NCBI GenBank assembly: GCA_033856025.1
Contig: JAWVFQ010000030.1
Location: 4,239-68,238 of the forward strand
Direction: 5' to 3'
Source: Solirubrobacteraceae bacterium
Lineage (GTDB): Bacteria; Actinomycetota; Thermoleophilia; Solirubrobacterales; Solirubrobacteraceae
Length of the DNA: 64,000 nt
Shown here: positions 8,880 through 50,002 of the stretch, one piece after another
How positions within the stretch are numbered: position 1 is the first letter of the stretch
How the letters are laid out: every line of letters starts with the position of its first letter
Notes under the pieces: generated by a model
Seen by the model: only the letters and a program-made list of their open reading frames with translations
Database searches by the model: none
Told to the model about the DNA's origin: nothing
Program-made: the position numbers and the translations under genes

Positions 8880-9955
8880 TCGATCCCGCCGTAGGCGAAC
8901 GTCGGGACGATCGGCCACTGCCGGCGCCATGACGCCAGCTCGCTGGAGGGGAAGACGTTGTGCCAGCGCGGGTCGCGCCGGTTGACGTCGGCCACGGCCT
9001 TCTCCTTGAGCATCGAGTCGTACTGGTCGACTGAGTCCTCCAGCGTGTTGGCGTTCATCACGACCTCGCGGCCGTAGAACTCCGCCCACTTGCGCACGCC
9101 GGGGATCTTCGACAGGTGGGGATGCCAGTTGTCGGCGGACACGCCGTTCTCGCTCGACACCCAGATCCCCTCCGGGGTGTTGACGCACAGCGAGTGGTTG
9201 CCGTCGGTGTGCCCGGGCGTCCAGAGCAGCGCGACCCCGGGACCGAGCTGCACGTCGCCGTCGACCAGGACGAGATTGTCGGTGCGCACGTCGTCCATCC
9301 CGCCGGGGACGTACCAGGCCCACTGCGTGGGGTGCACGGAGCGGAACGTGTCGACCTCGCGCGCCTGGAAGACGAACTTGGCGTTGGGAAAGTAGGGCTC
9401 GCGCGGCTCGCTCTCGTCGCCCACCGGCTGCGTCGTGCCCATCGTGATCCGCAGGTCCTGGACGTGCAGGTGGTCGAAGGAGACGAAGTCCACGTCGGCC
9501 GGAGTGAGGCCGAGGCCGGCCAGCGCCGCGTCGATCGTGTTGAACTCGGTCTCGCCGAAGCGGTGCGAGGCCCACTCGCCGAACTTCTCGATCAGCTGCT
9601 CGTAGAACGGAGCCTCGGCCGAGCCCTCGGGCACGGTGGGCTCCCAGACCAGCGTCTTCACGGCCCCCTCGAAGTCCTCGAACTGCAGGACCACCAGTCG
9701 GTTGACGATGTTCACGTAGGGGTTGAGCCCGCGCGCCGCGCCGTGGAAGGCGAAGCCCGCCGGATACGCCGCCGAGACGAGCGGGACGGTCCGGATCGCC
9801 CGCACCTGCCCCTCGTCCAGGAACCGCGCCCGGAACTCCGCCGCGGCGGCGCGGATCGCCGCCGGCCGGTCGCCGCGCGGCCACACCTCATGCGCCTCGC
9901 GAAACTCGCCTATCTCCCGCAGTCCCAGCTCGCCCGCCCGGTCCGTCGTGGCCAT
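8858..9955 (-). CDS. divergent MBL-fold metallo-hydrolase-like protein
   Basis: 365 aa. Motifs DHLHVQD and WTPGHTDGNHS resemble MBL motifs 2 and 3 but are not canonical HxHxDH. Overlaps the convergent gene by 22 nt. Confidence 0.5.
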   Translation of the reverse strand: MATTDRAGELGLREIGEFREAHEVWPRGDRPAAIRAAAAEFRARFLDEGQVRAIRTVPLVSAAYPAGFAFHGAARGLNPYVNIVNRLVVLQFEDFEGAVKTLVWEPTVPEGSAEAPFYEQLIEKFGEWASHRFGETEFNTIDAALAGLGLTPADVDFVSFDHLHVQDLRITMGTTQPVGDESEPREPYFPNAKFVFQAREVDTFRSVHPTQWAWYVPGGMDDVRTDNLVLVDGDVQLGPGVALLWTPGHTDGNHSLCVNTPEGIWVSSENGVSADNWHPHLSKIPGVRKWAEFYGREVVMNANTLEDSVDQYDSMLKEKAVADVNRRDPRWHNVFPSSELASWRRQWPIVPTFAYGGIDYGRIEK

Positions 9956-9977
9956 GGACGTGAGCCTAGCGAGCGGA

Positions 9978-11156
9978 TCAGGGCAGGGCCGAGACGGGCG
10001 CTGGCTCCGGGGCGGCCGCCGGCGCGTCGAGGACGTCCTCCGCCGTGTCCAGCTCGGAGACGATCGAGTCTATTTCCGACCGCTGCAGATCGGGCGCGGC
10101 CGCCTTGACCCTCCTGCGGGCCGAACGGACCGCCTTCTTGGCGCGAGGCCGGCCGACGGCCGGTCTCGGCGTGGTGCCCCGGACGAACACGCCCTGGAGT
10201 GAGCGGTACCCGTAGATCGCGAGGAGCGCCAGCGCGGCAAAGAGCAGCCCGGGCACGAGGTACTTCTCCGTGGTCCCGCCGCCCAGGTCGAGGTCGCGGG
10301 ACACGAGGTAGACGACAATGAGCTGTCCACCGCCGCCGCCGAGCGCGATCGCCGAGGCCGCCAGCAGCCCGCCCGCGGTGAACTCCCCCTTGGCCCGCGT
10401 CTGGGAGGTGATGGCGACGATCCCCGCGGCTCCGATCAGCGCGGCGGAGATGGCGCCTGCGATCGTCACCACCGCGAGCGCGCCCGCGGCGGCGGCGCCC
10501 AGGACCTGCTTGAGCAGGTCCGACGAGCCGAGGACACCGGCCAGCAGGCCTCCCACGACGGTGACGTTGCTGGCCCAGCTGCCGCCGAAGCTCCACGACG
10601 CGCCGACGTATGGCAGCGCCTGGTCCAGGCGCCGGTGCACATCGCCCTTCGGGTCCCAGGCCACGAAGGCGGCCAGGCTCACGGCGGCGCCCGCGCCGAG
10701 CGTCACCAGGAACCACCACAGCACGCCCCAGTCCGGCTTCGAGGGCACCGGCGCCTTCAGCGCGGCGACCACCGGAAGCGACGTTGCCGTGGCGCCGTTG
10801 CCCGCGGTCAGCGTCAGCGCGAGCTTCTTCGTCGCGAGGTCACACGCGGCCGGGACCGTGACCGTGAAGATCGTGTGCTGCGCCGCCGGGAGCCGGGCGC
10901 TGTGGTCCAGCTGCGGCGCGCAGCCGACCTTGGCGACCGCCGGCCTAGCCGTGACTGCGAGGGCGGCGTTCGACAAGTTGGTCAGCCCGACCGCGGTCGT
11001 CCAACCGCCGCCGTTCGCTTCGGCCAGCGCGACCTCACCGCTGTCGAGCGCCACCGGCGACGGCGTGGCCAACGCTGCCGGCGCCGTGAGGAGGGCGAGC
11101 ACCAGGGCTATGAGGAGGGACCGAATTGCCATCTTCCGGTCCGAACCTACGCCCAT
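9978..11156 (-). CDS. hypothetical integral membrane protein (signal peptide, ectodomain, multiple TM helices)
   Basis: 392 aa. N-terminal MAIRSLLIALVLALLTAPAALA-type signal; about 150 aa soluble region, then several hydrophobic helices and a basic tail. An alternative ATG start is at 11132. Confidence 0.6.
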   Translation of the reverse strand: MGVGSDRKMAIRSLLIALVLALLTAPAALATPSPVALDSGEVALAEANGGGWTTAVGLTNLSNAALAVTARPAVAKVGCAPQLDHSARLPAAQHTIFTVTVPAACDLATKKLALTLTAGNGATATSLPVVAALKAPVPSKPDWGVLWWFLVTLGAGAAVSLAAFVAWDPKGDVHRRLDQALPYVGASWSFGGSWASNVTVVGGLLAGVLGSSDLLKQVLGAAAAGALAVVTIAGAISAALIGAAGIVAITSQTRAKGEFTAGGLLAASAIALGGGGGQLIVVYLVSRDLDLGGGTTEKYLVPGLLFAALALLAIYGYRSLQGVFVRGTTPRPAVGRPRAKKAVRSARRRVKAAAPDLQRSEIDSIVSELDTAEDVLDAPAAAPEPAPVSALP

Positions 11157-18130: not shown

Positions 18131-18901
18131 TCAGGGACCGGCCCCCTCGGTGGCCGTTTTGCCGCCACGAAGCGTCGCGGCCGCGGCGGCCGCGGTCTCC
18201 TCGGAGAGCCAGCCGGCGTCGGTGGCGGGATCGGCCGGCGCGGCCAGGGCGGCCTCGGCGGCGGCGATCGCGGGCCCGCGCAGCTGGCGCTTGATCTCGC
18301 CGTAGGCGAAGTGCGGGAGGGCGGCGAGCTCGGCGGCGACCTCCAGGGCGCGGGGCACGACGTCGTCCGGTGCGGCGAGCTCGTCCACCAGGTCGAGCTC
18401 CAGCGCCTCGGGCGGCTCGTAGAGGCGCGCGCGCAGGACCAGCTGGCGCGCCACCGGCGGGGCGAGCTCGGCCTGGACGACGGTCATCGCCACGGCCGGG
18501 TACGGGATGCCCGCCCTCAGCTCGGTCAGACCGAGCCGCCCCTCGGTCGCGCCGACTCGGTGGTCCGCGCACAGCGCCAGGATCAGGCCGCCGGCGATCG
18601 CGTGGCCGGTCACGGCGCAGACGACGGGCCGCGGGAAGGCGTACCAGCCGGCGAACAGGCGGTTGATGGCGGCGGCCATGTCGCGCTGGCCGGCCGCGTC
18701 CAGCGTCGGCGCGAGCTTGAGGTCCAGGCCGGCGGAGAAGAACCCCGGCCGCCCGGCGAGCACCACCGCGCCAGGATCGTCCGCCGCCAGCTCGGCCAGC
18801 ACGTCGTGGCCCGCCGCGAGCAGCTCGAGGTCCATGGCGTTGGCCGGCGGCCGGTCGATGGTCACCAGCGCGACGTCGCCGCGCGCCTCGACGGAGATCA
18901 C
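18131..18901 (-). CDS. enoyl-CoA hydratase/isomerase family protein
   Basis: Crotonase motifs FFSAGLDLK and VTGHAIAGGLILALCADHRV. Confidence 0.85.
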   Translation of the reverse strand: MISVEARGDVALVTIDRPPANAMDLELLAAGHDVLAELAADDPGAVVLAGRPGFFSAGLDLKLAPTLDAAGQRDMAAAINRLFAGWYAFPRPVVCAVTGHAIAGGLILALCADHRVGATEGRLGLTELRAGIPYPAVAMTVVQAELAPPVARQLVLRARLYEPPEALELDLVDELAAPDDVVPRALEVAAELAALPHFAYGEIKRQLRGPAIAAAEAALAAPADPATDAGWLSEETAAAAAATLRGGKTATEGAGP

Positions 18902-18941
18902 GCGACCGCCGCCGCGCCGAGGGGAGTGGACGGCGCGACCA

Positions 18942-19583
18942 TCACGCCACCGCCGCCGCGTCGAACGGGATCGCCGTTGCGCGGAGAGTGCGGGTCCGCT
19001 GCGCCGCCACCTCCGGGTCGGTCGCCTGGGCGGCGACGAAGTCCTCCAGCGCCACCCCGGGGGCGAGGTCGTCGCGGACGGCGGCCAGGATCCCGCGCTC
19101 GTCGAGCGCGGGCCACACGCGGTCGCGCACCGGGATCGCCGCGACTCCGACCGGCGCTCCGTTCCGGCGCAGCGCGCCGTGCTTGGACATGTAGGCGCTC
19201 AGACCTTCATCGAGCTCGACGAAGTCGTAGTTGGGCTCGGTCGAGTGGACTCGTGCCAGCTCGGCCTCCGTCAGGTGGATTACGTGGACCGACGCCACGG
19301 CGCCCGGACACGGCAGAAGCGTCCCCGGGATCGCTCCGTACGGCGACACGTGCGCCGAGTAGACGACGTCGAAGCCCGCCAGCTCGCCGGCCACGACCGG
19401 CACGCGCGCCGACGCCGCCATGTCGCCCAGCTTCGCGGCCAGCCTGGCCGGCGACGCGTTGGCGCCGAAGGCCAGGACGGCCACGCGCCCGGCCGGGACC
19501 TCGCCCCGCCAGTCCAGCGGCCGCCCCGCGTCGAGCAGGTAGGAGCCACGCGGGATTCCGAACGGGTAGTCCAGCGCCCTCAT
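18942..19583 (-). CDS. gamma-glutamylcyclotransferase-like (AIG2/GGCT fold) protein
   Basis: 213 aa, taken from the internal Met MRALDYP of the track ORF. VLAFGANASPARLAAKLG matches the YGSN..L signature, and a downstream ..STEPNYDFVEL Glu is present. ATGA overlap with the upstream gene. Confidence 0.6.
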   Translation of the reverse strand: MRALDYPFGIPRGSYLLDAGRPLDWRGEVPAGRVAVLAFGANASPARLAAKLGDMAASARVPVVAGELAGFDVVYSAHVSPYGAIPGTLLPCPGAVASVHVIHLTEAELARVHSTEPNYDFVELDEGLSAYMSKHGALRRNGAPVGVAAIPVRDRVWPALDERGILAAVRDDLAPGVALEDFVAAQATDPEVAAQRTRTLRATAIPFDAAAVA

Positions 19584-20299
19584 CGCCGGGCCGCCGCCGC
19601 CTCCTGGACCAGCGCCGCGATCAGGCGGCTGGTCTCGTCGGCCTCGGGATGCCACTGGACGCCGAGGGCGAAGCGGCGCTCCGGGTCCTCCAGCGCCTCG
19701 GGCAGCGCGTCGGCCTCGGCGCGGCCGGTGACGACCAGCCCCTCCCCCACCCGCTCGACGCCCTGGTGGTGGTGGGACTTCGTCTCGTGGCGCTCCTCGC
19801 CGGCCGCCCGGGCGGCCAGGGAGCCCGCCTCCAGGCGGACGGGATGGTCGGCGCCCTCGAAGGTCCCGAGCACGCGCCGGTGGCCGCCCTCCGAGGGCAG
19901 GTCCTGCACGAGCGTCCCGCCGCGCGCCACGTTCATGACCTGCATCCCCCGGCAGATGCCCAGGAACGGCAGGTCGCGCTCCAGCGCCCGGGCGGCCAGC
20001 GCCAGCTCGAAGTCGTCGCGCTCGCGCGACGGGCGGTCTGTCGAGGGGTGGCGATCCGCGCCGTAGGTCTCGGGATCGAGGTCGGCGCCGCCGGCCAGGA
20101 TCAGCCCGTCCAGGAGGTCGAGCACCGGGTCGGGGTCGGCCGCGACGGCGGGGTCGGGCGGCAGCATGAGCACCGTCCCACCCGCGCGCTGGATGGCGTC
20201 GACGTAGTTGTGCGCCAGCAGGTACGCGGGCATGTCCCACACGCCCCAGCGCGCGCGCTCCAGGACGGTCGGGACGCCGATGCGCGGACGGTCGGTCAC
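19580..20299 (-). CDS. class I glutamine amidotransferase-like gamma-glutamyl hydrolase (peptidase C26, PuuD-like)
   Basis: Nucleophile motif LGICRGMQ and His motif VQWHPE. GTGA overlap with the upstream gene. Confidence 0.8.
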   Translation of the reverse strand: MTDRPRIGVPTVLERARWGVWDMPAYLLAHNYVDAIQRAGGTVLMLPPDPAVAADPDPVLDLLDGLILAGGADLDPETYGADRHPSTDRPSRERDDFELALAARALERDLPFLGICRGMQVMNVARGGTLVQDLPSEGGHRRVLGTFEGADHPVRLEAGSLAARAAGEERHETKSHHHQGVERVGEGLVVTGRAEADALPEALEDPERRFALGVQWHPEADETSRLIAALVQEAAAARR

Positions 20300-20679
20300 G
20301 CGCCGGGGACCTCCAGGACGCGGCGCTCGTGCGTCCCCACGCCCAGCGTCCGGTCGCCCTCGCGCACCTCGACGTCGAAGCGCAGCTTGCGCCCGTCGGC
20401 GATCTCGCGCAGCCGGGCGTGGACGGTGCAGCGCGCGCCCTCGCCGGCCGCGCCGACGTGCTTGACGCAGACCTCGAAGCCCACCGTGGCCCGGCCCTCC
20501 GGGAGCTTGGGCAACGCGAGCATCGCCGCGTTGCGCTCCATCATCGCGATCATCCCCGGCGTCGAGAGGACGCTGCGCCCGATCGTGCCGCCCACGTCGG
20601 TGAGCAGCCGGTCCGCGACGACGAACTCGTCCTCGCGCTCGTCGCCCACGCGCAGCTCGCCGACGGTCTCCTCGGGCAT
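20296..20679 (-). CDS. hotdog-fold thioesterase family protein
   Basis: 127 aa. The pattern LSTPGMIAMMERNA..GFEVCVKH.. resembles FlK/4HBT-type hotdog thioesterases. Confidence 0.65.
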   Translation of the reverse strand: MPEETVGELRVGDEREDEFVVADRLLTDVGGTIGRSVLSTPGMIAMMERNAAMLALPKLPEGRATVGFEVCVKHVGAAGEGARCTVHARLREIADGRKLRFDVEVREGDRTLGVGTHERRVLEVPGA

Positions 20680-21432
20680 CTACATCATCGTAAGGCCGCC
20701 GCTCACGCTGATCGTCTGGCCCGTGACGAACGACGAGTCGTCGCAGGCCAGGAAGGCGATCGTGGCGGCGACCTCGTCGGGCGTTCCCGCCCGGCGCATG
20801 TACGTGCTGGCGATCATCCCCTGGCGCAGCCGGTCGCCCGCCTCGCCGCCCGCCGTGAGCTTGTCCAGCAGCGGCGTCTCGATCGGCCCCGGGCTGACGG
20901 CGTTGCAGCGCACGCCGTAGCGGGCGAACTCCCGCGCCACGGCCTTGGTGAAGCCGATCACGCCCGCCTTGGCCGCGCTGTAGGGGATGTTCATCTCCGA
21001 GCCGCCGCGGCCGGCCTCGCTGGCCACGTTGACGATGGCGCCGCGGCCGCGCTCGCGCATGCCTCCCACCACCCGCTGGGTCACGGCCAGGGTCCCGTGG
21101 AGGTTGAGGCGCAGCTGGAAGTCCCAGTCCTCGGGCGCTATGTGGACGAACCAGCCCAGGCCGCGGTCGCCGCCGCCGGCGTTGTTGACCAGCACGTCCA
21201 TCGGGCCGAGCGCGTCCTCGGCCGCCTGCACTCCGGCCGCCACGCTGTCCAGGTCGAGCACGTCGAGGAGGACCGGCGTGCCGTCGATCTCGCCGGCCAC
21301 GTCGTGCGCGCCCGGCTCGTCGATGTCGGCGACGGCTACGCGGGCTCCCTCGGCGGCCAGCCGGCGGGCGGTGGCGGCGCCGATGCCCGATGCGGCCCCC
21401 GTCACCAGCGCGGTCCGTCCCTCCAATCGCAT
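20680..21432 (-). CDS. SDR family oxidoreductase (FabG-like)
   Basis: Motifs TGAASGIGAATA, NNAG and YSAAKAGV. Confidence 0.88.
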   Translation of the reverse strand: MRLEGRTALVTGAASGIGAATARRLAAEGARVAVADIDEPGAHDVAGEIDGTPVLLDVLDLDSVAAGVQAAEDALGPMDVLVNNAGGGDRGLGWFVHIAPEDWDFQLRLNLHGTLAVTQRVVGGMRERGRGAIVNVASEAGRGGSEMNIPYSAAKAGVIGFTKAVAREFARYGVRCNAVSPGPIETPLLDKLTAGGEAGDRLRQGMIASTYMRRAGTPDEVAATIAFLACDDSSFVTGQTISVSGGLTMM

Positions 21433-40917: not shown

Positions 40918-41247
40918 ATGGCCGCCGGCTCGGTCTTCATCCCCTGGTACGCCACGGGCTTCCGCGGCGACGGGCTGGAGGAGGCGCTGGCCGAGATCTC
41001 GTCGATCGCCATGCGCTACGGGGCGACCTACCACGGGGTCTACCGCTCGCGCGACGACCGTCACCGCTTCACGCAGATCGCCACGTTCGCCGGCAAGGAG
41101 GACTTCGAGCGCTACTGGTACGGCGAGGAGTTCGGGCGCTTCCGCGCGCAGCACGCCGGCTGGTACCAGGTGCCGGTCCTGTACGTGTGGCACGACGAGG
41201 TCGTGTCGGGCGCCCTCCAGCCGCAGCCGGCCGTCCCGAACGGGTGA
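40918..41247 (+). CDS. hypothetical protein (109 aa)
   Basis: ATG 7 nt after GGAGGA. High GC3. No recognised motif. Confidence 0.65.
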   Translation: MAAGSVFIPWYATGFRGDGLEEALAEISSIAMRYGATYHGVYRSRDDRHRFTQIATFAGKEDFERYWYGEEFGRFRAQHAGWYQVPVLYVWHDEVVSGALQPQPAVPNG

Positions 41248-41843
41248 CCGACCCCACGCCGGGGCTGCACCCGGCCCAGAACCGCGCGCTGCGCGAGCTC
41301 TACGCGGCGGCGCGCCAGCTGGCCGCGCACTGGGACGGCCTGGCGGGGCGCCTGGGCGCGGGCGAGGGAGTCGACGACCTGCGCGCGGGCGCGGGCGCGG
41401 CCGACGAGCTGCTGGTCGAGCTGGCCGACCTGACGGAGGGCTACGGCCTCTACGGCTTTCCCGCGGCGGCCGGCGTGGGCGCGCGCGTGGCCGGGCTGCG
41501 CAACACGCTGGCCGACCGCACGCTGGAGCGCAACCAGGCGCTGCGGATGGCCGTGCTCGACATCCAGCACGTGGCGACGCTGTGCGGCTACCTGGCCGCG
41601 CTGGGCGAGGCCCGCGGCGACGAGCCGATGGTCGAGTTCTGCGGGCGCTGGGAGCGCAAGCTCAAGCGCCTGGAGGGCCGGGTGCGCAAGGCGGCGATCG
41701 CCGCCGGGGCGGACCCGGATGCGGCCATCGAGGCCGTCGACCACGGCCCCCTGGGACGCGCGGGGCATCGCCTGGCCAACGCCGGCGGCACACTGGGCGA
41801 GTGGGTGGACCGCCGCTCGGCGCGGCGCCGGGGCGCGGGCTAA
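41244..41843 (+). CDS. hypothetical helical protein (199 aa)
   Basis: GTG at 41244 overlaps the upstream stop as GTGA. High GC3. Confidence 0.55.
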   Translation: MTDPTPGLHPAQNRALRELYAAARQLAAHWDGLAGRLGAGEGVDDLRAGAGAADELLVELADLTEGYGLYGFPAAAGVGARVAGLRNTLADRTLERNQALRMAVLDIQHVATLCGYLAALGEARGDEPMVEFCGRWERKLKRLEGRVRKAAIAAGADPDAAIEAVDHGPLGRAGHRLANAGGTLGEWVDRRSARRRGAG

Positions 41844-41900
41844 CCCTGGGGTGGACACCCTGGGGCGCGCGTCCTGCGCTCCGCATATGTTTCTCGACCG

Positions 41901-42725
41901 ATGCGACGCGTCACCTGCACCGCCCTGTCCGCCTGCGCGTTGGTCGCCGGGGGCTGTGGCGACTCGAAGGACGAGCCCGAGCAGCGGGCGAGCGGCGGCT
42001 TCGCGGCCGCCAGCTATCCCCGCGGCGCGGGCGACCCGGCGGCCACCGCGTCGCCGCGCGGGGGCATCGCGACGCTGCGCGCCCTGGGCCCGGTCAGGCG
42101 CCCGTCGCCCGGGACCGCCGTGCCCAAGCTGCGCGGCTCGGACATCCCGCTGACCGCCTTCCTGGGCACGGTCGCCAACGACGTCGCGGGGTTCTGGCAG
42201 AGCCAGTACAACCGCGCGGGCAAGCGCTTCCCGGCGACGCGGTTCCTCGTCGTGACCAAGCCGGTGCCCAGCGGATGCGCCGAGAAGCCGATCGAGCCGA
42301 CCAACCCCTTCGCGTTCTACTGCCCGACGGACCGGACCGTCTTCCTCCCGGTCACCTACATCGACCGCCGCTACCGGATCCTCGGGGACGCTCCGGTGGG
42401 GTTCGTGGTCGCGCACGAGTTCGCGCACCGCGTGCAGGACGTCACCGGGACGCTGCGGCGCAAGGCCGAGGGCAAGCTGTTCACCCGCCAGACCGAGCTC
42501 CAGGCCGACTGCCTGGCGGGCGTCTGGGCCGCCTCGGTCTACGCCCGCGGCGACCTCGATCCGGACGACCTGACCGAGTTCTTCAACGCGCTCGCCTCCA
42601 TCGGCGACCCGCCGGGGACGCCGGAGAACCATCCCCAGGCCCACGGCACCCCGGCCGAGCGCGAGGCCTCCTTCAAGCGCGGCTACGACGCCGCGAACGC
42701 CAACGCCTGTCCCGAAAGGACCTGA
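41901..42725 (+). CDS. lipoprotein, YpfJ-type neutral zinc metallopeptidase
   Basis: Signal/lipobox (ALVAGGC). HEFAH zinc motif, ELQADC and HGTPAER motifs. Confidence 0.75.
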   Translation: MRRVTCTALSACALVAGGCGDSKDEPEQRASGGFAAASYPRGAGDPAATASPRGGIATLRALGPVRRPSPGTAVPKLRGSDIPLTAFLGTVANDVAGFWQSQYNRAGKRFPATRFLVVTKPVPSGCAEKPIEPTNPFAFYCPTDRTVFLPVTYIDRRYRILGDAPVGFVVAHEFAHRVQDVTGTLRRKAEGKLFTRQTELQADCLAGVWAASVYARGDLDPDDLTEFFNALASIGDPPGTPENHPQAHGTPAEREASFKRGYDAANANACPERT

Positions 42726-43573
42726 TGAAGACGAGACACCCCCTCCTCGCATTGCTGGCCCTGCTGGCCGCCGGATTCCTGCTCGCCGCCTGCGGCGACG
42801 ACGGCAAGGACAAGTCGACCGCGTCGACGACGGCCACCACCCCCACCACGAGCACCCCCGCCGCGGCCATCCGCAGGCGCGTGCCGCGTGCCCCGGCCGA
42901 TCCGAAGGGACGTCGCCGGGCCCAGCTCAGCAGCGTGGGACAGCTCAAGCAGCCCAAGCTCGCGAGGCGCACCTCGGCCAAGGTCAAGGGGTCCAGCGCT
43001 CCCCTGCCCCAGTTCCTGGACACGATCTCCAACGACGTGGCGACGTACTGGCAGAAGGTCTTCAACAACAGCAAGCTGGAGTTCCCCAAGACCACCCAGG
43101 TCATCGTCACCGACTCCGCGAACGGCGGCTGCGGGACCATCACCAGCGCCGACGGGCCCCCGAACTACTGCCCGGCCGACCAGACGGTCTATCTCCCGGT
43201 CGGCTACTTCCAGGACAAGGTCATGCCGATCGGCGACGCCGCGGTCGTGACGCTGGTCGCCCTGGTCTGGGGCTATCGCGTGCAGGAGGCCGTGGGCGCC
43301 TTCAAGGCGGTCGAGTCCGGCCAGAAGACCGGGCTCGACCTCAACCTCGGCGCCATGTGCTTCGCCGGCTCCTACATGTCGACGGTGGCCGCGCGCAGCC
43401 TGCTCGAGTCCGGCGACGTTGACGAGATCCTCAAGACGGCCGCCGCCACCGCGGACCAGGGCACCCCGCCCGACGTGAACAAGTCCAAGGGGAGCCCGGC
43501 ACAGCGCGTCGCCGCCTTCCGAATCGGGTTCTCCCGGGGCGCCGCCACTTGCCAGAAGGTCAAGGCCGGTTAG
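42725..43573 (+). CDS. lipoprotein, YpfJ-like paralog lacking the HExxH motif (pseudo-peptidase)
   Basis: ATG at 42725 shares 1 nt with the upstream TGA. Lipobox LLAAC. Clear paralogy to the upstream gene, with HEFAH replaced by LVWGY. Confidence 0.7.
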   Translation: MKTRHPLLALLALLAAGFLLAACGDDGKDKSTASTTATTPTTSTPAAAIRRRVPRAPADPKGRRRAQLSSVGQLKQPKLARRTSAKVKGSSAPLPQFLDTISNDVATYWQKVFNNSKLEFPKTTQVIVTDSANGGCGTITSADGPPNYCPADQTVYLPVGYFQDKVMPIGDAAVVTLVALVWGYRVQEAVGAFKAVESGQKTGLDLNLGAMCFAGSYMSTVAARSLLESGDVDEILKTAAATADQGTPPDVNKSKGSPAQRVAAFRIGFSRGAATCQKVKAG

Positions 43574-43586
43574 GCTGGCATCCGAA

Positions 43587-44744
43587 GTGGCCGACGTAAC
43601 CTGTCCCAACTGCGGTCACCAGGTCCCCGAGGGGACCTGGTGCATTCGCTGTGGGCACCCCCTCGAGGGCGGCACCCGCGCCGGTGCCGGCGGCCAGTTC
43701 GCCGCCGCGCCCAACGAGCGCGCGTCGTCCCCGCGGATCGTGTCCACGCTGTTCCCGCAGCTGCCCAAGGCGGACATGGACGCGTTCCGCATCGCGCTGG
43801 GCGTGGGCGTGGCCGGGGTCGTGGCGCTGTCGGCGGCGCGGCTGTTCCCGGTGGCGGTGATCGCCGCGGCGCTGCTGGTGCCGCTGCTCACCGTCGTCTA
43901 CCTCTACGACGTCGACGTCTACGAGGACCAGCCGTTCCGGGTGGTGGCGTTCACCCTGGCCTGGGGCGCCATCGCCGGCGTGGGCATGGGGCTGCTGGCC
44001 GACTCGGTTTCGACGGCGGGGACGGACCTCGCCCTGAAGACGAGCGGCCAGGACGTGCTCCTGCGGGGCGTGGTGTTCCCGCTGGCCGCCGTGGCCCTGA
44101 CGCTCGCCGGGCCCCTGGTCCTGCTGCCCTACCGCAAGTTCAACGACGTCCTGGACGGGGTCACGTTCGGCGCCGCCTGCGCCGTGGCGTTCACGTCGGC
44201 CCAGGTCATCACCACCGCCGCCACGCTGGTCGAGGGCGGGCTGCGCCAGGACGGCCAGATAGTGCCCTGGATCGCCCGCACCCTCGCCATGGCGGCGGCC
44301 CAGCCCGTGCTGGCCATGGCCGCGGTGGGCGCCGCGGCGGGCGCGTGGTGGCTGCGCTACCGCGCCCCGGTCAAGGACCGCAAGGCGCTCGGGCCGCTGG
44401 GCCACCCGGTGGTGGCCACGCTGCTGGCCGCGGCGCTGGTCGTGGCCGGCGCGATCGGCCAGCCGCTGCTGCCGATCGGCTGGTGGCTGGCCGAGCTGGT
44501 CGTGCTCGACGTGGTCGCGCTGCTGTGGCTGCGCCGCACGATCCACCTGGGACTGCTCCAGGAGTCCGAGGAGATCGCGGTCGGGCCCGAGATCACGTGC
44601 CCCAACTGCAACCAGCAGACCCCCCGCCACTCCTTCTGTCGCAACTGCGGCATATCTCTGCTCGCGCTGCCCAAGCGCGCGGGTGACGCGGGCCCGGCCG
44701 CGCCCCCGGCCGGCGGCCCCGAGCCCGCCGGAGGCGCCGCGTGA
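43587..44744 (+). CDS. polytopic membrane protein flanked by N- and C-terminal zinc ribbons (PrsW-like core suspected)
   Basis: CPNCGHQVPEGTWCIRCG at the N-terminus and CPNCNQQTPRHSFCRNCG at the C-terminus. Multiple TM helices. DVYEDQPF resembles the PrsW D-x-YEPEP motif. Confidence 0.65.
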   Translation: MADVTCPNCGHQVPEGTWCIRCGHPLEGGTRAGAGGQFAAAPNERASSPRIVSTLFPQLPKADMDAFRIALGVGVAGVVALSAARLFPVAVIAAALLVPLLTVVYLYDVDVYEDQPFRVVAFTLAWGAIAGVGMGLLADSVSTAGTDLALKTSGQDVLLRGVVFPLAAVALTLAGPLVLLPYRKFNDVLDGVTFGAACAVAFTSAQVITTAATLVEGGLRQDGQIVPWIARTLAMAAAQPVLAMAAVGAAAGAWWLRYRAPVKDRKALGPLGHPVVATLLAAALVVAGAIGQPLLPIGWWLAELVVLDVVALLWLRRTIHLGLLQESEEIAVGPEITCPNCNQQTPRHSFCRNCGISLLALPKRAGDAGPAAPPAGGPEPAGGAA

Positions 44745-45457
44745 GCCCGGCGGTCCCGGCCCCCGCCCCGGGTCCCGCCCCGGCTCCGGTCCGCGCCGTG
44801 CCGTCGCGGATGGACCGGCGGCGGCTGATCCTCATCCTCGCCGGCGCGTTCGCCGTCGTCGTCGTCGTCGCCATCGTGCTCGCCGCCGTCCTGGCGCCCG
44901 CCGCGCCCAAGGCGCCGTGTCCGCGCGGCAAGCCGTGCGGCGCGCCGCCGCAGGCGCCGCCCCTGGTCAACCAGACGGTCTGGCGCTCGAGCCAGCTGGG
45001 CTACTCGCTCGAGTACAACGCCGAGCGCTGGAAGGTGGAGAACGAGAGCCCCACCGGGGTCAACTTCAGCTCGACGCAGGGCGACATGGGCCTGTCCGTC
45101 GACGGCGCGCCGGCCGGTCAGTCGACGCCGCGGGCGCTGTTCGACCAGCGCGTCGACGACATCCGCGGGCGGACCCTGGGCCTGGACGACGACACCGAGC
45201 GCGCGCACAAGGTCCTCTCCCCCGTCGTCGGCCTGCACCCGGGCGTCGGGGGAGCCTTCCGCGCCACCGTCGACTCGCCGCAGGGGACGACCGCTCCCCT
45301 CTCGATCGCGATGATGGCCGCCGGGAACCAGCAGGTCAGCGTCGTCGTGGTGGGCGCGACCAGCGAGACCGACGAGGGCAATCGCGACGCGCTCATGTCC
45401 CGCGCCGACTCGATCCTCAACACGCTGCGCATGCCCGGCGACCAGGTGCCGCGATGA
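44741..45457 (+). CDS. single-pass membrane protein with Pro/Ala-rich N-terminus
   Basis: GTGA overlap with the upstream gene. TM helix LILILAGAFAVVVVVAIVLAAVL. Ectodomain of about 170 aa with no recognised motif. Confidence 0.6.
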   Translation: MSPAVPAPAPGPAPAPVRAVPSRMDRRRLILILAGAFAVVVVVAIVLAAVLAPAAPKAPCPRGKPCGAPPQAPPLVNQTVWRSSQLGYSLEYNAERWKVENESPTGVNFSSTQGDMGLSVDGAPAGQSTPRALFDQRVDDIRGRTLGLDDDTERAHKVLSPVVGLHPGVGGAFRATVDSPQGTTAPLSIAMMAAGNQQVSVVVVGATSETDEGNRDALMSRADSILNTLRMPGDQVPR

Positions 45458-47082
45458 AGGCCCTGGCCGCGGCCGTCGTCCTGGCGCTCGGCGCCGGCGG
45501 CGGCGTGCTCGCGCTCGGAGCCGGGCGCGACGAGCCCGCGCCGCCCAGTGGCCCGCGCGTCGTGGCCCACACGAGCCCGTCGCGGACCGTCGAGTTCACG
45601 CTCTCGCTGCGCCAGGACCACGCGGCGGTCAGCCGCTTCCTGAACGCGCTGGACGACCCGGCCTCGCCGCAGTACCACCACTTCATCTCCCCCGCCCAGT
45701 TCGGCGCGCGCTTCGGCGTCTCGTCGGCCGAGCTGGCCCGGGTCCGCACCGCTCTGAGGGCCGCCGGCCTGGAGGTCACCTCCAGCGTCCCCCAGCGCAC
45801 GTCGCTGGGCGTCCGCGGCCGCGTGGCCGACGTCGAGCGGCTGTTCGGCACGCGCCTGAACGAGTGGGTCGGCGCCGACGGCCGGCGCTACCGCGCGCCG
45901 GTTCGTCCCCCGCGGATCCCGCGCGCCCTGGACCGCGCGGTGGCCGCGGCCACCGGGCTGGACAACCGCCCGCGCTACCACTTCCAGGCCGTCCCCAAGG
46001 AGGGCCTGACCCCCCGTATCTCCCGCACCACCTACAACGTCACCCCGCTCCACACCCGCGGCGTGGACGGCCGCGGACAGACGATCGCGATCCTGTCCTA
46101 CGACTCCTTCCAGGACTCCGACGTGGCCGCCTTCGACCGCCAGATGGGCATCGTCGGCGCGCCGCCGGTGCGCCACGTCCCCGTCGACGGGAAGATCGAG
46201 CCCGGTGACGGCCAGGTCGAGGTCGACCTCGACATCGACGTCGTGCGCAACATCGCGCCGCGCGCGCAGATCCTCAACTACGAGATGCCCAACGACGGCC
46301 GTCCCATGGCCGTGGTCATCGACAAGATCGTCGCCGACGGGAAGGTGGAGGTCATCTCCAACTCCTGGGGCGCCTGCGCCGTCGCGTACTCGGCCCAGCA
46401 GCGCGCGGCCGACCAGGCTTCGATCGCCGCGGCCGCGGCGCGCGGGATCACCATGTACGTCGCCTCGGGCGACGCCGGCTCCTACGACTGCCAGCACAGC
46501 GACCCGTCCGACACGCGCGTGTCCGTGGACTGGCCGTCGTCGAGCCCCAACGCGGTGGCCGTGGGCGGGACGCTGCTGTCCGTGCGCCGCGACAACACCT
46601 ACCTCACCGAGACCGGCTGGGAGGACCCGCTGTCCAACGCCGGCGGCGGCGGCGGCCTGAGCACCTTCTTCGCCCGCCCCGCCTACCAGCGCGGCCCCGG
46701 CGTGCAGAACCGCTTCAGCACCGGCAAGCGCCAGGTGCCCGACGTGGCGGCCGCGGCCGACGGCGACTCGGGATGGCTTATCGTCACGAGCGGCGAGGCG
46801 GTCAAGGTGGGCGGGACCAGCGCCGCGGCGCCGTTCTGGGCGGCCTCCATGCTGCTGGTGGGCCAGCACGCGCGCCGCCAGGGCGCCGGGCGCGTCGGCT
46901 TCGCCAACCCGCTGCTCTACCGCATCGCGGCCCGCCGCGACTCGCCGTTCCACGACGTGACCGCCGGCGGCAACCGCGGCTACCGCGCCACGCCGGGCTG
47001 GGACTACGCCACGGGCTGGGGTTCGCCCGACGTGGCCGCGCTGGCCGACTCGGTGGTGGCCGAGCTCAAGCGCGGTCGATGA
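45454..47082 (+). CDS. S53 (sedolisin/kumamolisin) family serine peptidase with pro-domain
   Basis: ATGA overlap with the upstream gene. Signal anchor. Motifs VEVDLDID (Glu/Asp), SNSWG and GGTSAAAPFW (Ser). Confidence 0.8.
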   Translation: MKALAAAVVLALGAGGGVLALGAGRDEPAPPSGPRVVAHTSPSRTVEFTLSLRQDHAAVSRFLNALDDPASPQYHHFISPAQFGARFGVSSAELARVRTALRAAGLEVTSSVPQRTSLGVRGRVADVERLFGTRLNEWVGADGRRYRAPVRPPRIPRALDRAVAAATGLDNRPRYHFQAVPKEGLTPRISRTTYNVTPLHTRGVDGRGQTIAILSYDSFQDSDVAAFDRQMGIVGAPPVRHVPVDGKIEPGDGQVEVDLDIDVVRNIAPRAQILNYEMPNDGRPMAVVIDKIVADGKVEVISNSWGACAVAYSAQQRAADQASIAAAAARGITMYVASGDAGSYDCQHSDPSDTRVSVDWPSSSPNAVAVGGTLLSVRRDNTYLTETGWEDPLSNAGGGGGLSTFFARPAYQRGPGVQNRFSTGKRQVPDVAAAADGDSGWLIVTSGEAVKVGGTSAAAPFWAASMLLVGQHARRQGAGRVGFANPLLYRIAARRDSPFHDVTAGGNRGYRATPGWDYATGWGSPDVAALADSVVAELKRGR

Positions 47083-48242
47083 GCGCGGGCCCGGCCGAGC
47101 CGGTCCCGGAGCTCGAGTCGGCCGAGTCGGGCGTCTTCGGCGTCGCGGCGGTGCTGCGCGACTTCGACGAGGCCGACGTGGCGCGCCTGCGCGCGGTCGC
47201 CGCCGCGATCCGCAGCCCCGAGCGCCCCGCCGTGCGCAGCGCGATCGCCCTGTCGGGCTCGGCCGCCCAGTCGCGCGTGCAGCCGTTCCCGGGGGACTTC
47301 GACTTCTTCGAGCGCGTCCACATCCGAGCGCCCAGCCGCACCGCCGCCCAGCTGGAGCTGCGCGACGTCATGGTCGCCACGATCGCGGGGGCCTTCGCCA
47401 ACCCCGACCTCCAGTTCTCCGAGATGAAGCTGGGGCTGCACCCGCGTGACCGCACGCCGCTGTCCTGGACGCTGGTGCACGTGGATGCCCGCGCGCTGGA
47501 GCTCGAGGACGGGAGCACCCTGGCCATGGACGACGTCCTGGACGAGCCCGGCTTCGTCAAGCTCGATTGGGTCCACGCCGACCACGCCCGCGGGCGGCTG
47601 GTCAACGTGTCCAAGGTCCTGGACCCGACCTGGGAGTCGCCGGACGGCGACATCGTCGCGCTGGACGGGGTGCTCGACGCCTTCTACCAGGAGGTCTACC
47701 TCGACCCCGACTCGCGGATCGACGTCGAGCGCCTCGTCCACCACGTGCGCCCGGACGACCTCGTCGCCTACGTGCAGCAGCTGGAGAGCGAGGTGCGCAA
47801 GTACTCCGACCCCGCGCACGCCAACCACGGCAAGGTGGCCAAGCGCCTCTACAACCTGTGCCGCGTCCAGGGCCGCGCGGCGGAGGCGGCCTACCTGCGC
47901 TCGCTGTTCGACGATCCGCCCGCGCGGCTCTACCAGGTCCAGGGCATGCTTCACGCGCTGGAGCCCGCGCTGGGCTCGCGCCGCCTGCCCGCCGAGGTCG
48001 TGGCCAGCCAGTCCCGCGAGCTCGGCGACCTGCTGCGCACGTGCTACTCGGGCGACGACCGCGACGAGCTGTGCGGGCTGGTGTCCCAGCTGGCCGGCCT
48101 GGAGGAGGCGGCCCGCGCGCAGGCCGCCCTGCGCGTCGCCGGGGCCGCCAACGCGCAGGTCAGCGACTACTTCGGCCGGCGCATCGCCGAGAACGAGGCG
48201 CTGCGCGACTACGTGGAAGAGCTGCGGGCGCTCGCGCCCTAG
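47079..48242 (+). CDS. hypothetical cytosolic protein with minimal nucleotidyltransferase-fold signature
   Basis: ATGA overlap with the upstream gene. LSGSAAQSRVQPFPGDFDFF fits hG[GS]-x(9-13)-DhDh; the remainder is helical. Confidence 0.55.
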   Translation: MSAGPAEPVPELESAESGVFGVAAVLRDFDEADVARLRAVAAAIRSPERPAVRSAIALSGSAAQSRVQPFPGDFDFFERVHIRAPSRTAAQLELRDVMVATIAGAFANPDLQFSEMKLGLHPRDRTPLSWTLVHVDARALELEDGSTLAMDDVLDEPGFVKLDWVHADHARGRLVNVSKVLDPTWESPDGDIVALDGVLDAFYQEVYLDPDSRIDVERLVHHVRPDDLVAYVQQLESEVRKYSDPAHANHGKVAKRLYNLCRVQGRAAEAAYLRSLFDDPPARLYQVQGMLHALEPALGSRRLPAEVVASQSRELGDLLRTCYSGDDRDELCGLVSQLAGLEEAARAQAALRVAGAANAQVSDYFGRRIAENEALRDYVEELRALAP

Positions 48243-50002
48243 GTGCGCGCGCGGCCGCGGCTGCGGTACACCCGCAGACCGGCGCGGGCCAGCATCTCGG
48301 GGATCTCGCGGACCGGCTCGCGGTCCTTGTCGCGCTCGGCCTCGGGGAGCTCCTCCCACGGGACCAGCAGCGGGTGCAGCCGCTGCTCGGGGTCCTTGGG
48401 CCCGGTGGTGGGCCGCCAGCCGTCGCGCTCCAGGTCGGCCATCCAGCGGTCGTGCTCCGCCCGGGCCAGCGCCTCGACCTCCTCGTCGGAGAACTCGAAC
48501 ATCGGCCCCTCGCCGTCGAGCACCAGCGGGGTGGGCGCCAGCCCGCAGCCGGTCTCCGCGAGCTTGTCGCCGATCCCGTCGGCGAAGCGCCGGTTGGAGT
48601 CGCGCAGCGACTCGGGAAGCTCGTCCCACGGCGCCACCGAGGGGTTCTCGTCCGGCGTGATCCCGCGGGCCAGCTCGGCGCGGCGGTACTGCTCGTGCTT
48701 GGCGCGGGCGATCTGCTCCGTCGTGCCGCCCAGCAGCACGGCCGGCGTGGCCGCCTCGGAGAACACGCCGAACGGCTCGATCCTCGACATGCGGCCCTCG
48801 TCGTCGGCCAGGGCGACGCCCACCCCGGCGTTGGCGTCGGGCAGCGCGACCACGACGGGCACGGCGCAGGTGTCCGGCCGCGCGTGCAGCGCCAGGGCCG
48901 CCGCCATGGCCTGCGACTGGCTCCACAGGCAGACGTAGGCGAACGTCACGTCGGCCGCCCCGTCCTCGCCCGCCATCGCGCCGCCCTCGCGAAACGCGCC
49001 CGACTCCAGCGGCATCTGCCGCGCGTCCAGGCGGCACGCACGCTCCAGCGCCGGCTGGCGCTCGATCAGCGCGGCCACGTCGGACTCCGCGTTCGGTCCG
49101 GCCACGGTCACGCGCAGGCGCGGCGCCTGGTCGACCGTCAGGGCGTGCCAGGTGTTGACGAGGTGCAGCAGCAGCTGCTCGCCCACGCTCTCCAGGCCCA
49201 CGATGAGCACGTGCGGGTCCGGCGTGTCCTTGAACGGCGGCCAGCGCTGGACCATCAGGCGCGCCGCGGTCAGGTAGACGTTGAAGAACTCCAGGCGGAT
49301 GCTGGGCTCGCGCGCCGTGGTGAGCGCCTCGGCGGTCAGCGAGCGCAGCAGCTCGGGGTCGTCGAGGTGGGCGAAGACGGTGAGGATGCCCGTCTTGCGC
49401 TGGTCGAGCAGCTGCTCGGCCGCGGCCGCGGCGTCGACGTTGATCCCGTCCTCACCGCAGGTGAGGAAGAGCAGGCGCGCCCGGTCCACGCCGGTGCGCG
49501 CCAGCAGCGCGGGGTCCGCGGCGTCGCCCGCCACGACGATCGCGCCGCGCTCGCGCGCGCCCTCGGCGCCCGCGCTGTGCACGTTGCCGTCGATGGCCAC
49601 GACGTGATGGCCGCCCTCGCGGAACGCGGCGGCCAGGCGGCGGCCCATCTCCCCCAGGCCGGCCACGACCACGTGGTCGCGGGCGAAGAGCCGCACCCGC
49701 ACGTGCTGGACGCGCTCGCGGAACAGCAGGACGAGGCCGCGCAGCGCCGCGTAGCCCGTGACCAGCGGACCCAGGAAGCGGGCGATCTCCAGGGTCACCG
49801 GCACCGGCGGCGCCACGTCGCCGCCCAGGCCGAACAGGCCCAGGGACCGGTAGAGCGAGTCGAGGAGGCCGTAGTCGGCGCTCTTGAGGCGGTGGAAGCC
49901 GATCGTCCCGAGGACCAGGACGGCCACGCCCGCCAGGAAGGCGATGGCCGGGCGCACCGTCCCCACCCACGGACGGACCCACTGAAGCGAGCGGCGGATC
50001 AC
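48239..50002 (-). CDS. 2TM pore-loop-like / tandem RCK (TrkA-N) protein with two C-terminal RyR domains
   Basis: GTG at 50002 overlaps the clpS stop as GTGA. Motifs VVVAGLGEMGRRLA and VLIVGLESVGEQL (Rossmann). RyR-like repeats (ARAKHEQYRR.., ARAEHDRWMADLERDGW..LVPWEELPEAERDKDR). Confidence 0.7.
   Translation of the reverse strand: MIRRSLQWVRPWVGTVRPAIAFLAGVAVLVLGTIGFHRLKSADYGLLDSLYRSLGLFGLGGDVAPPVPVTLEIARFLGPLVTGYAALRGLVLLFRERVQHVRVRLFARDHVVVAGLGEMGRRLAAAFREGGHHVVAIDGNVHSAGAEGARERGAIVVAGDAADPALLARTGVDRARLLFLTCGEDGINVDAAAAAEQLLDQRKTGILTVFAHLDDPELLRSLTAEALTTAREPSIRLEFFNVYLTAARLMVQRWPPFKDTPDPHVLIVGLESVGEQLLLHLVNTWHALTVDQAPRLRVTVAGPNAESDVAALIERQPALERACRLDARQMPLESGAFREGGAMAGEDGAADVTFAYVCLWSQSQAMAAALALHARPDTCAVPVVVALPDANAGVGVALADDEGRMSRIEPFGVFSEAATPAVLLGGTTEQIARAKHEQYRRAELARGITPDENPSVAPWDELPESLRDSNRRFADGIGDKLAETGCGLAPTPLVLDGEGPMFEFSDEEVEALARAEHDRWMADLERDGWRPTTGPKDPEQRLHPLLVPWEELPEAERDKDREPVREIPEMLARAGLRVYRSRGRART

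Follow-up and report, generated by a model that had tools for sequence, protein, structure and literature searches.

Organization of the locus

The stretch of DNA analyzed here, a 64-kb window (64,000 nucleotides) of contig JAWVFQ010000030.1 from a Solirubrobacteraceae bacterium, carries at positions 41901–48242 a cluster of six open reading frames (ORFs) on the + strand, which were denominated g1 to g6. In this order they encode a lipoprotein of the YpfJ type of zinc peptidases, a paralogous lipoprotein in which the HExxH motif is replaced, a PrsW-like polytopic membrane protein between two zinc ribbons, a single-pass membrane protein with a predicted PsbP/Mog1/DcrB-like ectodomain, an S53 pro-sedolisin and a predicted cytosolic protein with a nucleotidyltransferase fold. 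Comparison with related genomes and metagenome loci indicates that three layers are combined in this cluster, namely a conserved triad consisting of g3, g4 and g5, a local pair of YpfJ-like genes (g1 and g2) and a local nucleotidyltransferase gene (g6).

The GC content around the cluster is 0.70–0.77, and at third codon positions it amounts to 0.94–0.98 in each of the six genes, which shows that they are genuine coding frames and not shadow ORFs. Their coordinates are exactly those at which an earlier reading of the bare sequence (the original prediction) had placed them, and the junctions are also as it described: g1 and g2 share one nucleotide (TGATG, within CTGATGA), g2 and g3 are separated by a gap of 13 nucleotides, and four-base overlaps join g3 to g4 (GTGA), g4 to g5 (ATGA) and g5 to g6 (ATGA). 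As overlaps of this kind are frequent in high-GC operons, the coupling alone is no proof that the six genes form one functional unit.

The assignments of the individual products made in the original prediction held as well. Profile searches identified PF04228 in g1 and g2, PF13367 in g3, and a pro-kumamolisin together with an S8 domain in g5, and structure prediction followed by Foldseek searches for g4 and g6, which match no family, returned a PsbP-like fold and a nucleotidyltransferase resembling Mg662, respectively. The intact motif of g1 next to the destroyed one of g2, the two zinc ribbons and the missing EExxK and His motifs of g3, the single membrane passage and Pro/Ala-rich head of g4, the intact signature of g5 and the minimal Pol-beta signature of g6 were all found again in the analyses described below. 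The claim that the six genes make up one module fared differently and is discussed together with g6.

Conservation of the g3-g4-g5 triad

The strongest signal in the comparison is the linkage of g3, g4 and g5. It was assessed in a set of 80 metagenome loci anchored on g3, with all counts limited to loci that possess enough flanking sequence. Of the 54 loci in which the flank reaches 0.9 kb or more, 53 have g4 after g3, and g5 follows in all 30 loci whose flank extends to 3 kb or more. The identity of g3 in loci with conserved adjacency is 44–69%, and the triad was also found in a metagenome-assembled genome of the Chloroflexota (L039). Among 401 genomes of the phylum, nine contain a g3 homolog and five of these belong to Mycolicibacterium, the carriers including M. 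rutilum and, by cluster membership, M. flavescens. Here the order is permuted to S53-g3-g4, stops and starts again overlap, and in one genome there are three copies. A linkage that persists although the genes have changed places argues strongly for a functional unit.

In addition, the parts of the triad are fused in other organisms. In-frame fusions of g3 and g4 were found at 11 distinct loci and a fusion of g4 and g5 at one (L108), and all three are contained in a single ORF in L159 (1113–4082, 989 amino acids) and L166 (973 amino acids). A search with g3 against a protein library of 1.84 billion representatives yielded 136 clusters of the g3 family at E ≤1e-30. Many of the representatives are about 590–700 amino acids long, which is the length of a g3-g4 fusion; two of this length that were scanned (P0130, P0134) gave no Pfam match, as is expected because g4 itself matches no family. 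All six scanned representatives of about 890–1060 amino acids have a C-terminal S8/S53 catalytic domain, which is preceded by a prodomain in two of them and lacks one in the other four (P0139, P0181, P0192 and P0207). From these prodomain-less fusions it appears possible that the PsbP-like domain takes over the part of the prodomain, either as a chaperone or as an inhibitor. Inspection of the L159 ORF by eye showed the S53 domain after the PsbP-like domain and no detectable pro-kumamolisin activation domain between them.

Amplified versions exist too. In L151/L171 and in L168 three g4-g5 pairs, which are only 35–64% identical to each other, come after a single g3, and L146 contains a second g4. 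One g3 accompanied by several diverged g4-g5 pairs fits the idea that each g4 is the cognate partner of its g5. When all ORFs of the flanking regions were clustered against each other, nothing beyond the triad with its shadow frames turned out to be widely shared, and no further conserved neighbor emerged. Taken together, the comparative data indicate that g3, g4 and g5 are a widely conserved unit, present in Actinomycetota and Chloroflexota.

One could argue that the adjacency merely reflects co-regulated housekeeping proteolysis in the envelope, with unrelated proteases collected in one operon and no complex formed, given that every product of the cluster other than that of g6 is an envelope protein or a protease. 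The two- and three-part in-frame fusions in many lineages, the linkage that survives permutation and the co-duplication of g4 and g5 exceed what such co-regulation would predict, and we regard this explanation as improbable.

An apparently dead member of the PrsW family

g3 (43587–44744, + strand) encodes a protein of 385 amino acids with about eight transmembrane (TM) helices as judged from hydropathy. It begins and ends with a zinc ribbon: the N-terminal one (C6/C9/C19/C22, positions 43602–43652, + strand) gives matches to Zn_ribbon_6 and DZR, the C-terminal one (C338/C341/C351/C354, positions 44598–44648, + strand) to DZR and Zn_ribbon_3, and the cysteines of both are 100% conserved in 55 homologs. 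Arg/Lys-rich loops occur at residues 257–274 and 316–320. Hydropathy, the positive-inside rule and the Cys4 ribbons themselves suggest that both termini, and with them both zinc ribbons, are cytoplasmic.

The membrane core between the ribbons (residues 115–282) matches PF13367 (PrsW) with 26.4 bits at a cut-off of 23.5, but scores only 13.6 against the NCBIfam PrsW equivalog NF033739, for which the cut-off is 225. A MAFFT alignment of g3 with one canonical PrsW left the placement of the GHP segment ambiguous, and therefore a profile-profile alignment was used instead, in which a 55-member alignment of the g3 family from related loci was compared with the cores of seven canonical PrsW proteins, which came from this genome and from related ones. 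hhalign gave a probability of 96.6%, and the blocks D-x-YE-x-EP and L-D-G are common to both families. The passed Pfam threshold, the failed equivalog threshold and the hhalign result together show that g3 is a homolog of PrsW and not an equivalog.

The motifs described for PrsW are EExxK in TM helix 3, which contains the predicted catalytic glutamates, GFAxxEN, a His in TM helix 5 and HxxxD/N (PMC4602095). In the profile alignment the two glutamates of EExxK fall on A168 and V169 of g3, where the columns of the 55 homologs hold G/S/E/A and V/A/F/G/L, the E and N of GFAxxEN fall on A205 and Q206, and the His of TM helix 5 falls on Q239, in a column of Q/A/V/M/I. All of these columns are variable and mostly occupied by small or hydrophobic residues, and in none of them is an acidic residue or a His conserved. 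Hence g3 appears to be a catalytically dead member of the PrsW family that has lost EExxK, the E-N pair and the His of TM helix 5.

Some features of g3 could nevertheless be read in favor of an enzyme with a non-canonical active site, which would cut g4 or pro-g5 within the membrane or close to it, in a step comparable to the site-1 cleavage by PrsW, with the zinc ribbons coupling it to a cytoplasmic signal. E113, D187, D190 and E326 are invariant in the g3 family and might form an active site that was not recognized. The helix corresponding to HxxxD/N lies outside the Pfam and hhalign alignments, and a His that is 94% conserved, H320, is found where the last TM helix reaches the cytoplasm (RRTIHLGLLQE). 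Furthermore, the Pfam PrsW threshold is passed, a single Glu occupies the first EE position in 10 of the 55 homologs, and PrsW proteins fused to zinc ribbons have been listed as probable signaling peptidases (Zhang et al. 2012, PMC3482391). On the other side stand the replacement of both EExxK glutamates, of the E-N pair and of the TM helix 5 His in variable columns, together with the very low equivalog score; the D-x-YE-x-EP and DG blocks occur in canonical PrsW as well and are not assigned a catalytic role there, and the existence of stable multi-domain fusions speaks for parts that remain joined and uncut. We therefore consider an active g3 rather unlikely.

g3 thus shares a homologous core of eight TM helices and conserved blocks with canonical PrsW, and a precedent for its fusion to zinc ribbons exists within that family (PMC3482391). 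It differs from canonical PrsW in the missing EExxK, E-N and TM helix 5 His, in the absence of an adjoining sigma or anti-sigma gene, and in its consistent association, and frequent fusion, with an S53 peptidase and a single-pass protein of the PsbP-like kind. Compared with the zinc-ribbon PrsW proteins of Zhang et al. (2012), its subfamily appears catalytically degenerate and is tied to S53. The same genome encodes a canonical PrsW elsewhere (genome G000, contig C20, 2549–3124; L169, 973–2523, − strand), which scores 184 bits and in which EESAK, GFAMTEN, GHP and HSLWN are all intact, so that the dead g3 is no replacement for the housekeeping enzyme. In public databases the triad proteins of Mycolicibacterium are named "hypothetical protein", "S53 family peptidase" and "Membrane proteinase PrsW, cleaves anti-sigma factor RsiW". 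For a g3 homolog the last of these labels is misleading, and the annotation is corrected here.

The membrane-anchored PsbP-like protein and the sedolisin

The product of g4 (44741–45457, + strand, 238 amino acids) matches no Pfam or NCBIfam family. An AlphaFold2 model built from 41 homologs reached a mean predicted local distance difference test (pLDDT) score of 89.2 and shows a Pro/Ala-rich N-terminus, a single TM helix (residues 26–51 in the model, 25–60 in the sequence) and an ectodomain (residues 79–226) that is modeled as an alpha-beta-alpha sandwich with a central antiparallel sheet. Foldseek related the ectodomain to PsbP, CyanoP, SciW/Eag, Apa of M. tuberculosis, MTC28, LpqN, DcrB and Mog1, with a probability of 1.0 and target-normalised template modeling (TM) scores of 0.45–0.59 for these named folds, and 25 structures of the Protein Data Bank matched at E ≤1e-3. 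Judging from the model, the g4 ectodomain therefore resembles the PsbP/Mog1/DcrB/LpqN/Apa/Eag (SciW) folds. Several proteins with a PsbP/Mog1/DcrB-like fold are protein-binding modules of the envelope.

The g4 family evolves fast, and its sequence is poorly conserved except for a few glycines and a C-x5-C motif (C60 and C66, positions 44918–44938, + strand), which is its best conserved element, often takes the form CPxxxPC, lies just outside the TM helix and is kept in the fusion proteins. From the PsbP-like proteins g4 is set apart by the lack of any sequence-family membership, by its N-terminal TM anchor and by this cysteine pair outside the membrane.

g5 (45454–47082, + strand) encodes 542 amino acids with a hydrophobic N-terminal export segment (residues 1–24), a Pro-kuma_activ domain (PF09286, 79 bits, residues 37–171), for which g5 is the only gene in the genome, and a Peptidase_S8 domain (PF00082, 43.6 bits). 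The sedolisin signature of Glu, Asp and Ser plus the oxyanion Asp is present (ExxLD, SGD, GTSxxxP), and each member of the catalytic set E256, D260, D340 and S456 is at least 90% conserved in 40 homologs. The prodomain and the Glu/Asp/Asp/Ser set are common to g5 and to the sedolisins including kumamolisin (MEROPS S53). Characterized sedolisins are free secreted enzymes, whereas the g5 subfamily is encoded with or fused to membrane partners and its prodomain is sometimes missing.

The polarity of the triple fusions, with the PrsW-like core followed by a TM helix and exported domains, is shared with fusions of PrsW to polymorphic toxins, for which a role of the PrsW core as export or insertion conduit has been discussed (PMC3482391). 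By the same logic g4 and g5 would be cargo of g3. This idea, which is only a proposal for the toxins themselves, is regarded as very improbable: g4 has its own signal-anchor helix and g5 its own export segment, so that export by Sec or YidC would be enough, and no toxin or immunity genes are found nearby.

The YpfJ-like pair

g1 (41901–42725, + strand, 274 amino acids) and g2 (42725–43573, + strand, 282 amino acids) match PF04228 (Zn_peptidase) with 95.4 and 84.1 bits, respectively, over about 200 residues in both cases. Lipoboxes are present in the sequences of g1 (VAGGC) and g2 (LAAC). Against the equivalog NF050010 both reach about 100 bits and thus remain far below the cut-off of 250. g1 has the motif HEFAH, its orthologs have HEFAH or HEWGH, and ELQADC and HG[TS] are retained in the orthologs too. 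In g2 the position of HExxH is occupied by LVALVWGYRVQ, and g2 and its orthologs from L004, L089 and L006 (48–66% identity) have ALVWGY, GLLWGY or ASIYSD in place of the motif. As HExxH is lost in all of these orthologs as well, g2 can be regarded as a maintained pseudo-enzyme. Family membership and the HExxH of g1 are shared with the neutral zinc metallopeptidases of the YpfJ/KPN_02809 type (PF04228, NF050010), from which the pair differs by its sub-equivalog scores, by being lipoproteins and by the conserved non-catalytic paralog.

g1 adjoins the triad only in two genomes of the same genus (G003 and G005) and in the metagenome loci L004/L005 and L006. Among 44 other loci in which 1 kb or more of sequence before g3 is available, none has a YpfJ-like gene there. 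The distribution indicates that g1 and g2 are a genus-level companion of the triad, restricted to this genus and the relatives closest to it. Both probably work in the same compartment as the triad, which would function without them.

The nucleotidyltransferase g6 and its exonuclease neighbor

g6 (47079–48242, + strand, 387 amino acids) gave no match to any Pfam or NCBIfam family. Its AlphaFold2 model (16 homologs, pLDDT 85.7) retrieved as top Foldseek matches the structures 4XUL, 4AMS and 4AMQ of Mg662 from Megavirus chilensis, with a probability of 1.0, E-values of about 1e-6 and TM-scores of 0.5–0.6; the structural alignment extends over the full length at about 10% identity. The motif hG[GS]-x(9-13)-DxD is present, and G60, S61, D73 and D75 are invariant in 16 diverse homologs. 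On this structural evidence g6 is predicted to be an Mg662-like protein of the nucleotidyltransferase fold, more distantly resembling OAS and the CD-NTases. OAS and CD-NTase structures matched only marginally, the latter with E-values of 0.01 or worse and TM-scores of about 0.2. A reading of g6 and the cluster as a defence system of the CBASS type (cyclic oligonucleotide-based antiphage signaling system) was considered and rejected, because there is no PADLOC match, no adjoining effector gene and only this weak similarity to CD-NTases.

The family of g6 comprises more than 688 homologs and is represented in more than 580 species genomes from Actinomycetota, Chloroflexota, Cyanobacteria and others, and its usual neighbor is a different one. 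Among loci anchored on g6, 82 of 88 have no homolog of g1 to g5 nearby. Instead, a gene of 190–220 amino acids for an Rv2179c-like DEDD 3'-5' exoribonuclease (PF16473) adjoins the g6 homolog in 56 of 85 loci and lies within 300 nucleotides in 49 of these, with varying order and orientation (L001, 11209–11868; L002, 9415–9990; L006, 5313–5900; further cases among L009–L088). Such loci are found in Actinomycetota, Chloroflexota and Cyanobacteria. We found no paper describing a pairing of an Rv2179c-like exonuclease with a nucleotidyltransferase in a literature search. In the genome analyzed here no PF16473 gene is present, only the nucleotidyltransferase. These data indicate that g6 is a stray member of a separate family pairing of nucleotidyltransferase and exonuclease and a local add-on to the triad. 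It probably entered beside g5 together with the exonuclease, as in L006, and lost the latter subsequently, in which case the ATGA coupling of g5 and g6 would be an accident of insertion and not a sign of common function.

Comparison within the genus and flanking genes

The full order of six genes was found only in G003 and in two near-identical metagenome contigs (L004/L005), at about 65–83% identity. In G003 the arrangement equals that of the window: a CCR gene, two hypothetical genes (up1 and up2), g1 to g6, and on the opposite strand an RCK, an ALDH and a GMC gene. In G005 the CCR gene is followed by up1-up2-g1-g2-g3-g4-g5 and then directly by clpS and the ALDH gene, without g6 and RCK, and in G001 of the same genus only the triad is present, within a different set of neighboring genes. 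A match to g6 is absent from both G005 and G001, their triad loci included. The locus L089 has g2-g3-g4-g5 followed by the RCK gene on the − strand and lacks g6, and in L006 a g1-like gene, g3, g4, g5, g6, the exonuclease gene and a g2-like gene follow each other. The differences within the genus identify the region 3' of g5 as a variable spot and g6 and RCK as an insertion or deletion there.

According to the original prediction, the six genes are one trans-envelope module for processing or signaling, in which the nucleotidyltransferase would be the output and the YpfJ-like pair an input or processing arm. All genes point in the same direction with overlapping junctions, the full order is kept in G003 and L004/L005, and even in the rearranged L006 g1, g2 and g6 are still near the triad. 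The gene-neighborhood comparison points the other way: the order is not conserved beyond these close relatives, g6 follows the triad in 1 of 21 loci with enough flank and is thus missing from the other 20 as well as from L089, G005 and G001, its homologs generally have no protease neighbor and often an exonuclease one, none of 44 other loci has a YpfJ-like gene before g3, and PADLOC gave no match. A single six-gene module is therefore very improbable. What is left of it is narrower and at the same time stronger, namely a conserved g3-g4-g5 unit with parts that are fused elsewhere; a signaling role with the nucleotidyltransferase as cytosolic output found no support in the comparison.

The RCK gene (48239–50002, − strand), which contains TrkA_N and RyR domains, is convergent to g6. 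Full-length homologs occur near 3 of 31 long triad loci, and two more loci gave partial TrkA_N matches; relatives with TrkA_N/RyR near triads are those in L171 (929–5731, − strand), L164 and L166. Membership of RCK in the triad module was not accepted, as 3 of 31 loci are too weak a basis, albeit suggestive. L171 also has a second operon coding for a PrsW-like protein (351 amino acids), a single-pass protein with a zinc ribbon (380 amino acids), a protein of 196 amino acids and, as last gene, a TrkA_N/RyR protein.

Genes that by their domains are of the defence type sit beside the triad in some relatives (L004 and L171). In L004 a gene with SIR2_2 and an nSTAND NTPase (7566–10007) lies between g6 and RCK, and in L171 giant proteins of the TIR-WD40 and WD40 types flank the triad (6850–9861 and 18614–21203). 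For the window itself, none of seven scanned proteins matched a PADLOC defence model.

Upstream of g1 lies the pair up1-up2 (40918–41843; 109 and 199 amino acids, with a GTGA overlap at 41244), which has no Pfam family match and is kept directly upstream of g1 in G003, G005 and L004. Between this pair and g1 a consensus scan found a weak terminator-like hairpin (41861–41883, + strand), possibly the 5' boundary of the transcription unit; the scan returned three sites against 1.5 expected and is uninformative for a high-GC actinobacterium. The same holds for the corresponding scan for sigma-70-like promoters, which found none.

Proposed function of the triad

We favor with moderate confidence the reading in three layers, in which the triad is a membrane platform that tethers or controls the sedolisin. 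It builds on the homologies, the state of the motifs, the fold of g4, the adjacency, the permuted order and the fusions, from which docking, binding partners, topology and substrate can be proposed as follows. g3 would act as a non-catalytic scaffold, with its cytoplasmic zinc ribbons as the point of regulation or anchoring, and the TM helix of g4 would dock on g3. The fusions place this helix directly after the C-terminal cytoplasmic ribbon of g3, a topology that is consistent with an association of g4 and g3. The PsbP-like ectodomain of g4 would then hold, position or control the exported pro-sedolisin or mature g5 on the outer side of the membrane, and together the three would form a serine-carboxyl protease complex tethered to the membrane, with proteins of the envelope or the extracellular space as its substrates.

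Several observations weigh against this proposal. The fusions establish a functional link, though not in particular a scaffold or tether mechanism. The invariant polar residues and H320 of g3 discussed above could belong to an active site that was not recognized. Concerning the separation into layers, g1 and g2 are still found close to the triad in L006 although this locus is rearranged, suggesting that a looser functional tie may exist, and g6 is start/stop-coupled to g5 not only in the window but also in L004 and L006.

A parallel can be drawn to iRhom2 and ADAM17 of animals, where a pseudo-rhomboid, which has a regulatory domain in the cytoplasm, is linked to an active ectodomain sheddase bearing a prodomain. 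The triad resembles this pair in combining a putative pseudo-intramembrane protease with an active extracytoplasmic protease that has a prodomain, which is an analogy and not a homology: the folds and protease classes are unrelated, the g4 adaptor has no counterpart, and the complex of the triad is deduced from fusions and linkage. Following the iRhom/ADAM17 logic, the former substrate groove of g3 might hold the TM helix of g4, and the zinc ribbons might gate the maturation or activity of g5. We regard this more specific version as tentative and on balance unlikely; if true, the cytoplasmic state would control proteolysis at the cell surface.

Conclusion

The statement of the original prediction that no system of this composition has been described agrees with our literature search, which found no describing paper for the combinations of PrsW and sedolisin, PrsW and S53, PrsW and pseudoprotease, or S53 and zinc ribbon. 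Bacterial pseudo-proteases have been little studied, and to our knowledge no member of the PrsW family has been assigned a non-catalytic role.

The window itself contributes a genus-specific pair of an active and a dead YpfJ-like protein and a nucleotidyltransferase that can be recognized as a stray, and its analysis led to the permuted arrangement in Mycolicibacterium and brought to light the separate pair of nucleotidyltransferase and exonuclease. It also illustrates that operon-style overlaps can join unrelated modules. The triad offers a clean and widely distributed case in which linkage, permuted gene order and gene fusion bind an apparently dead PrsW to an active sedolisin and an adaptor of PsbP-like fold, and its occurrence in the cultivable Mycolicibacterium rutilum and M. 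flavescens makes the hypothesis of a tethered or gated S53 complex testable.

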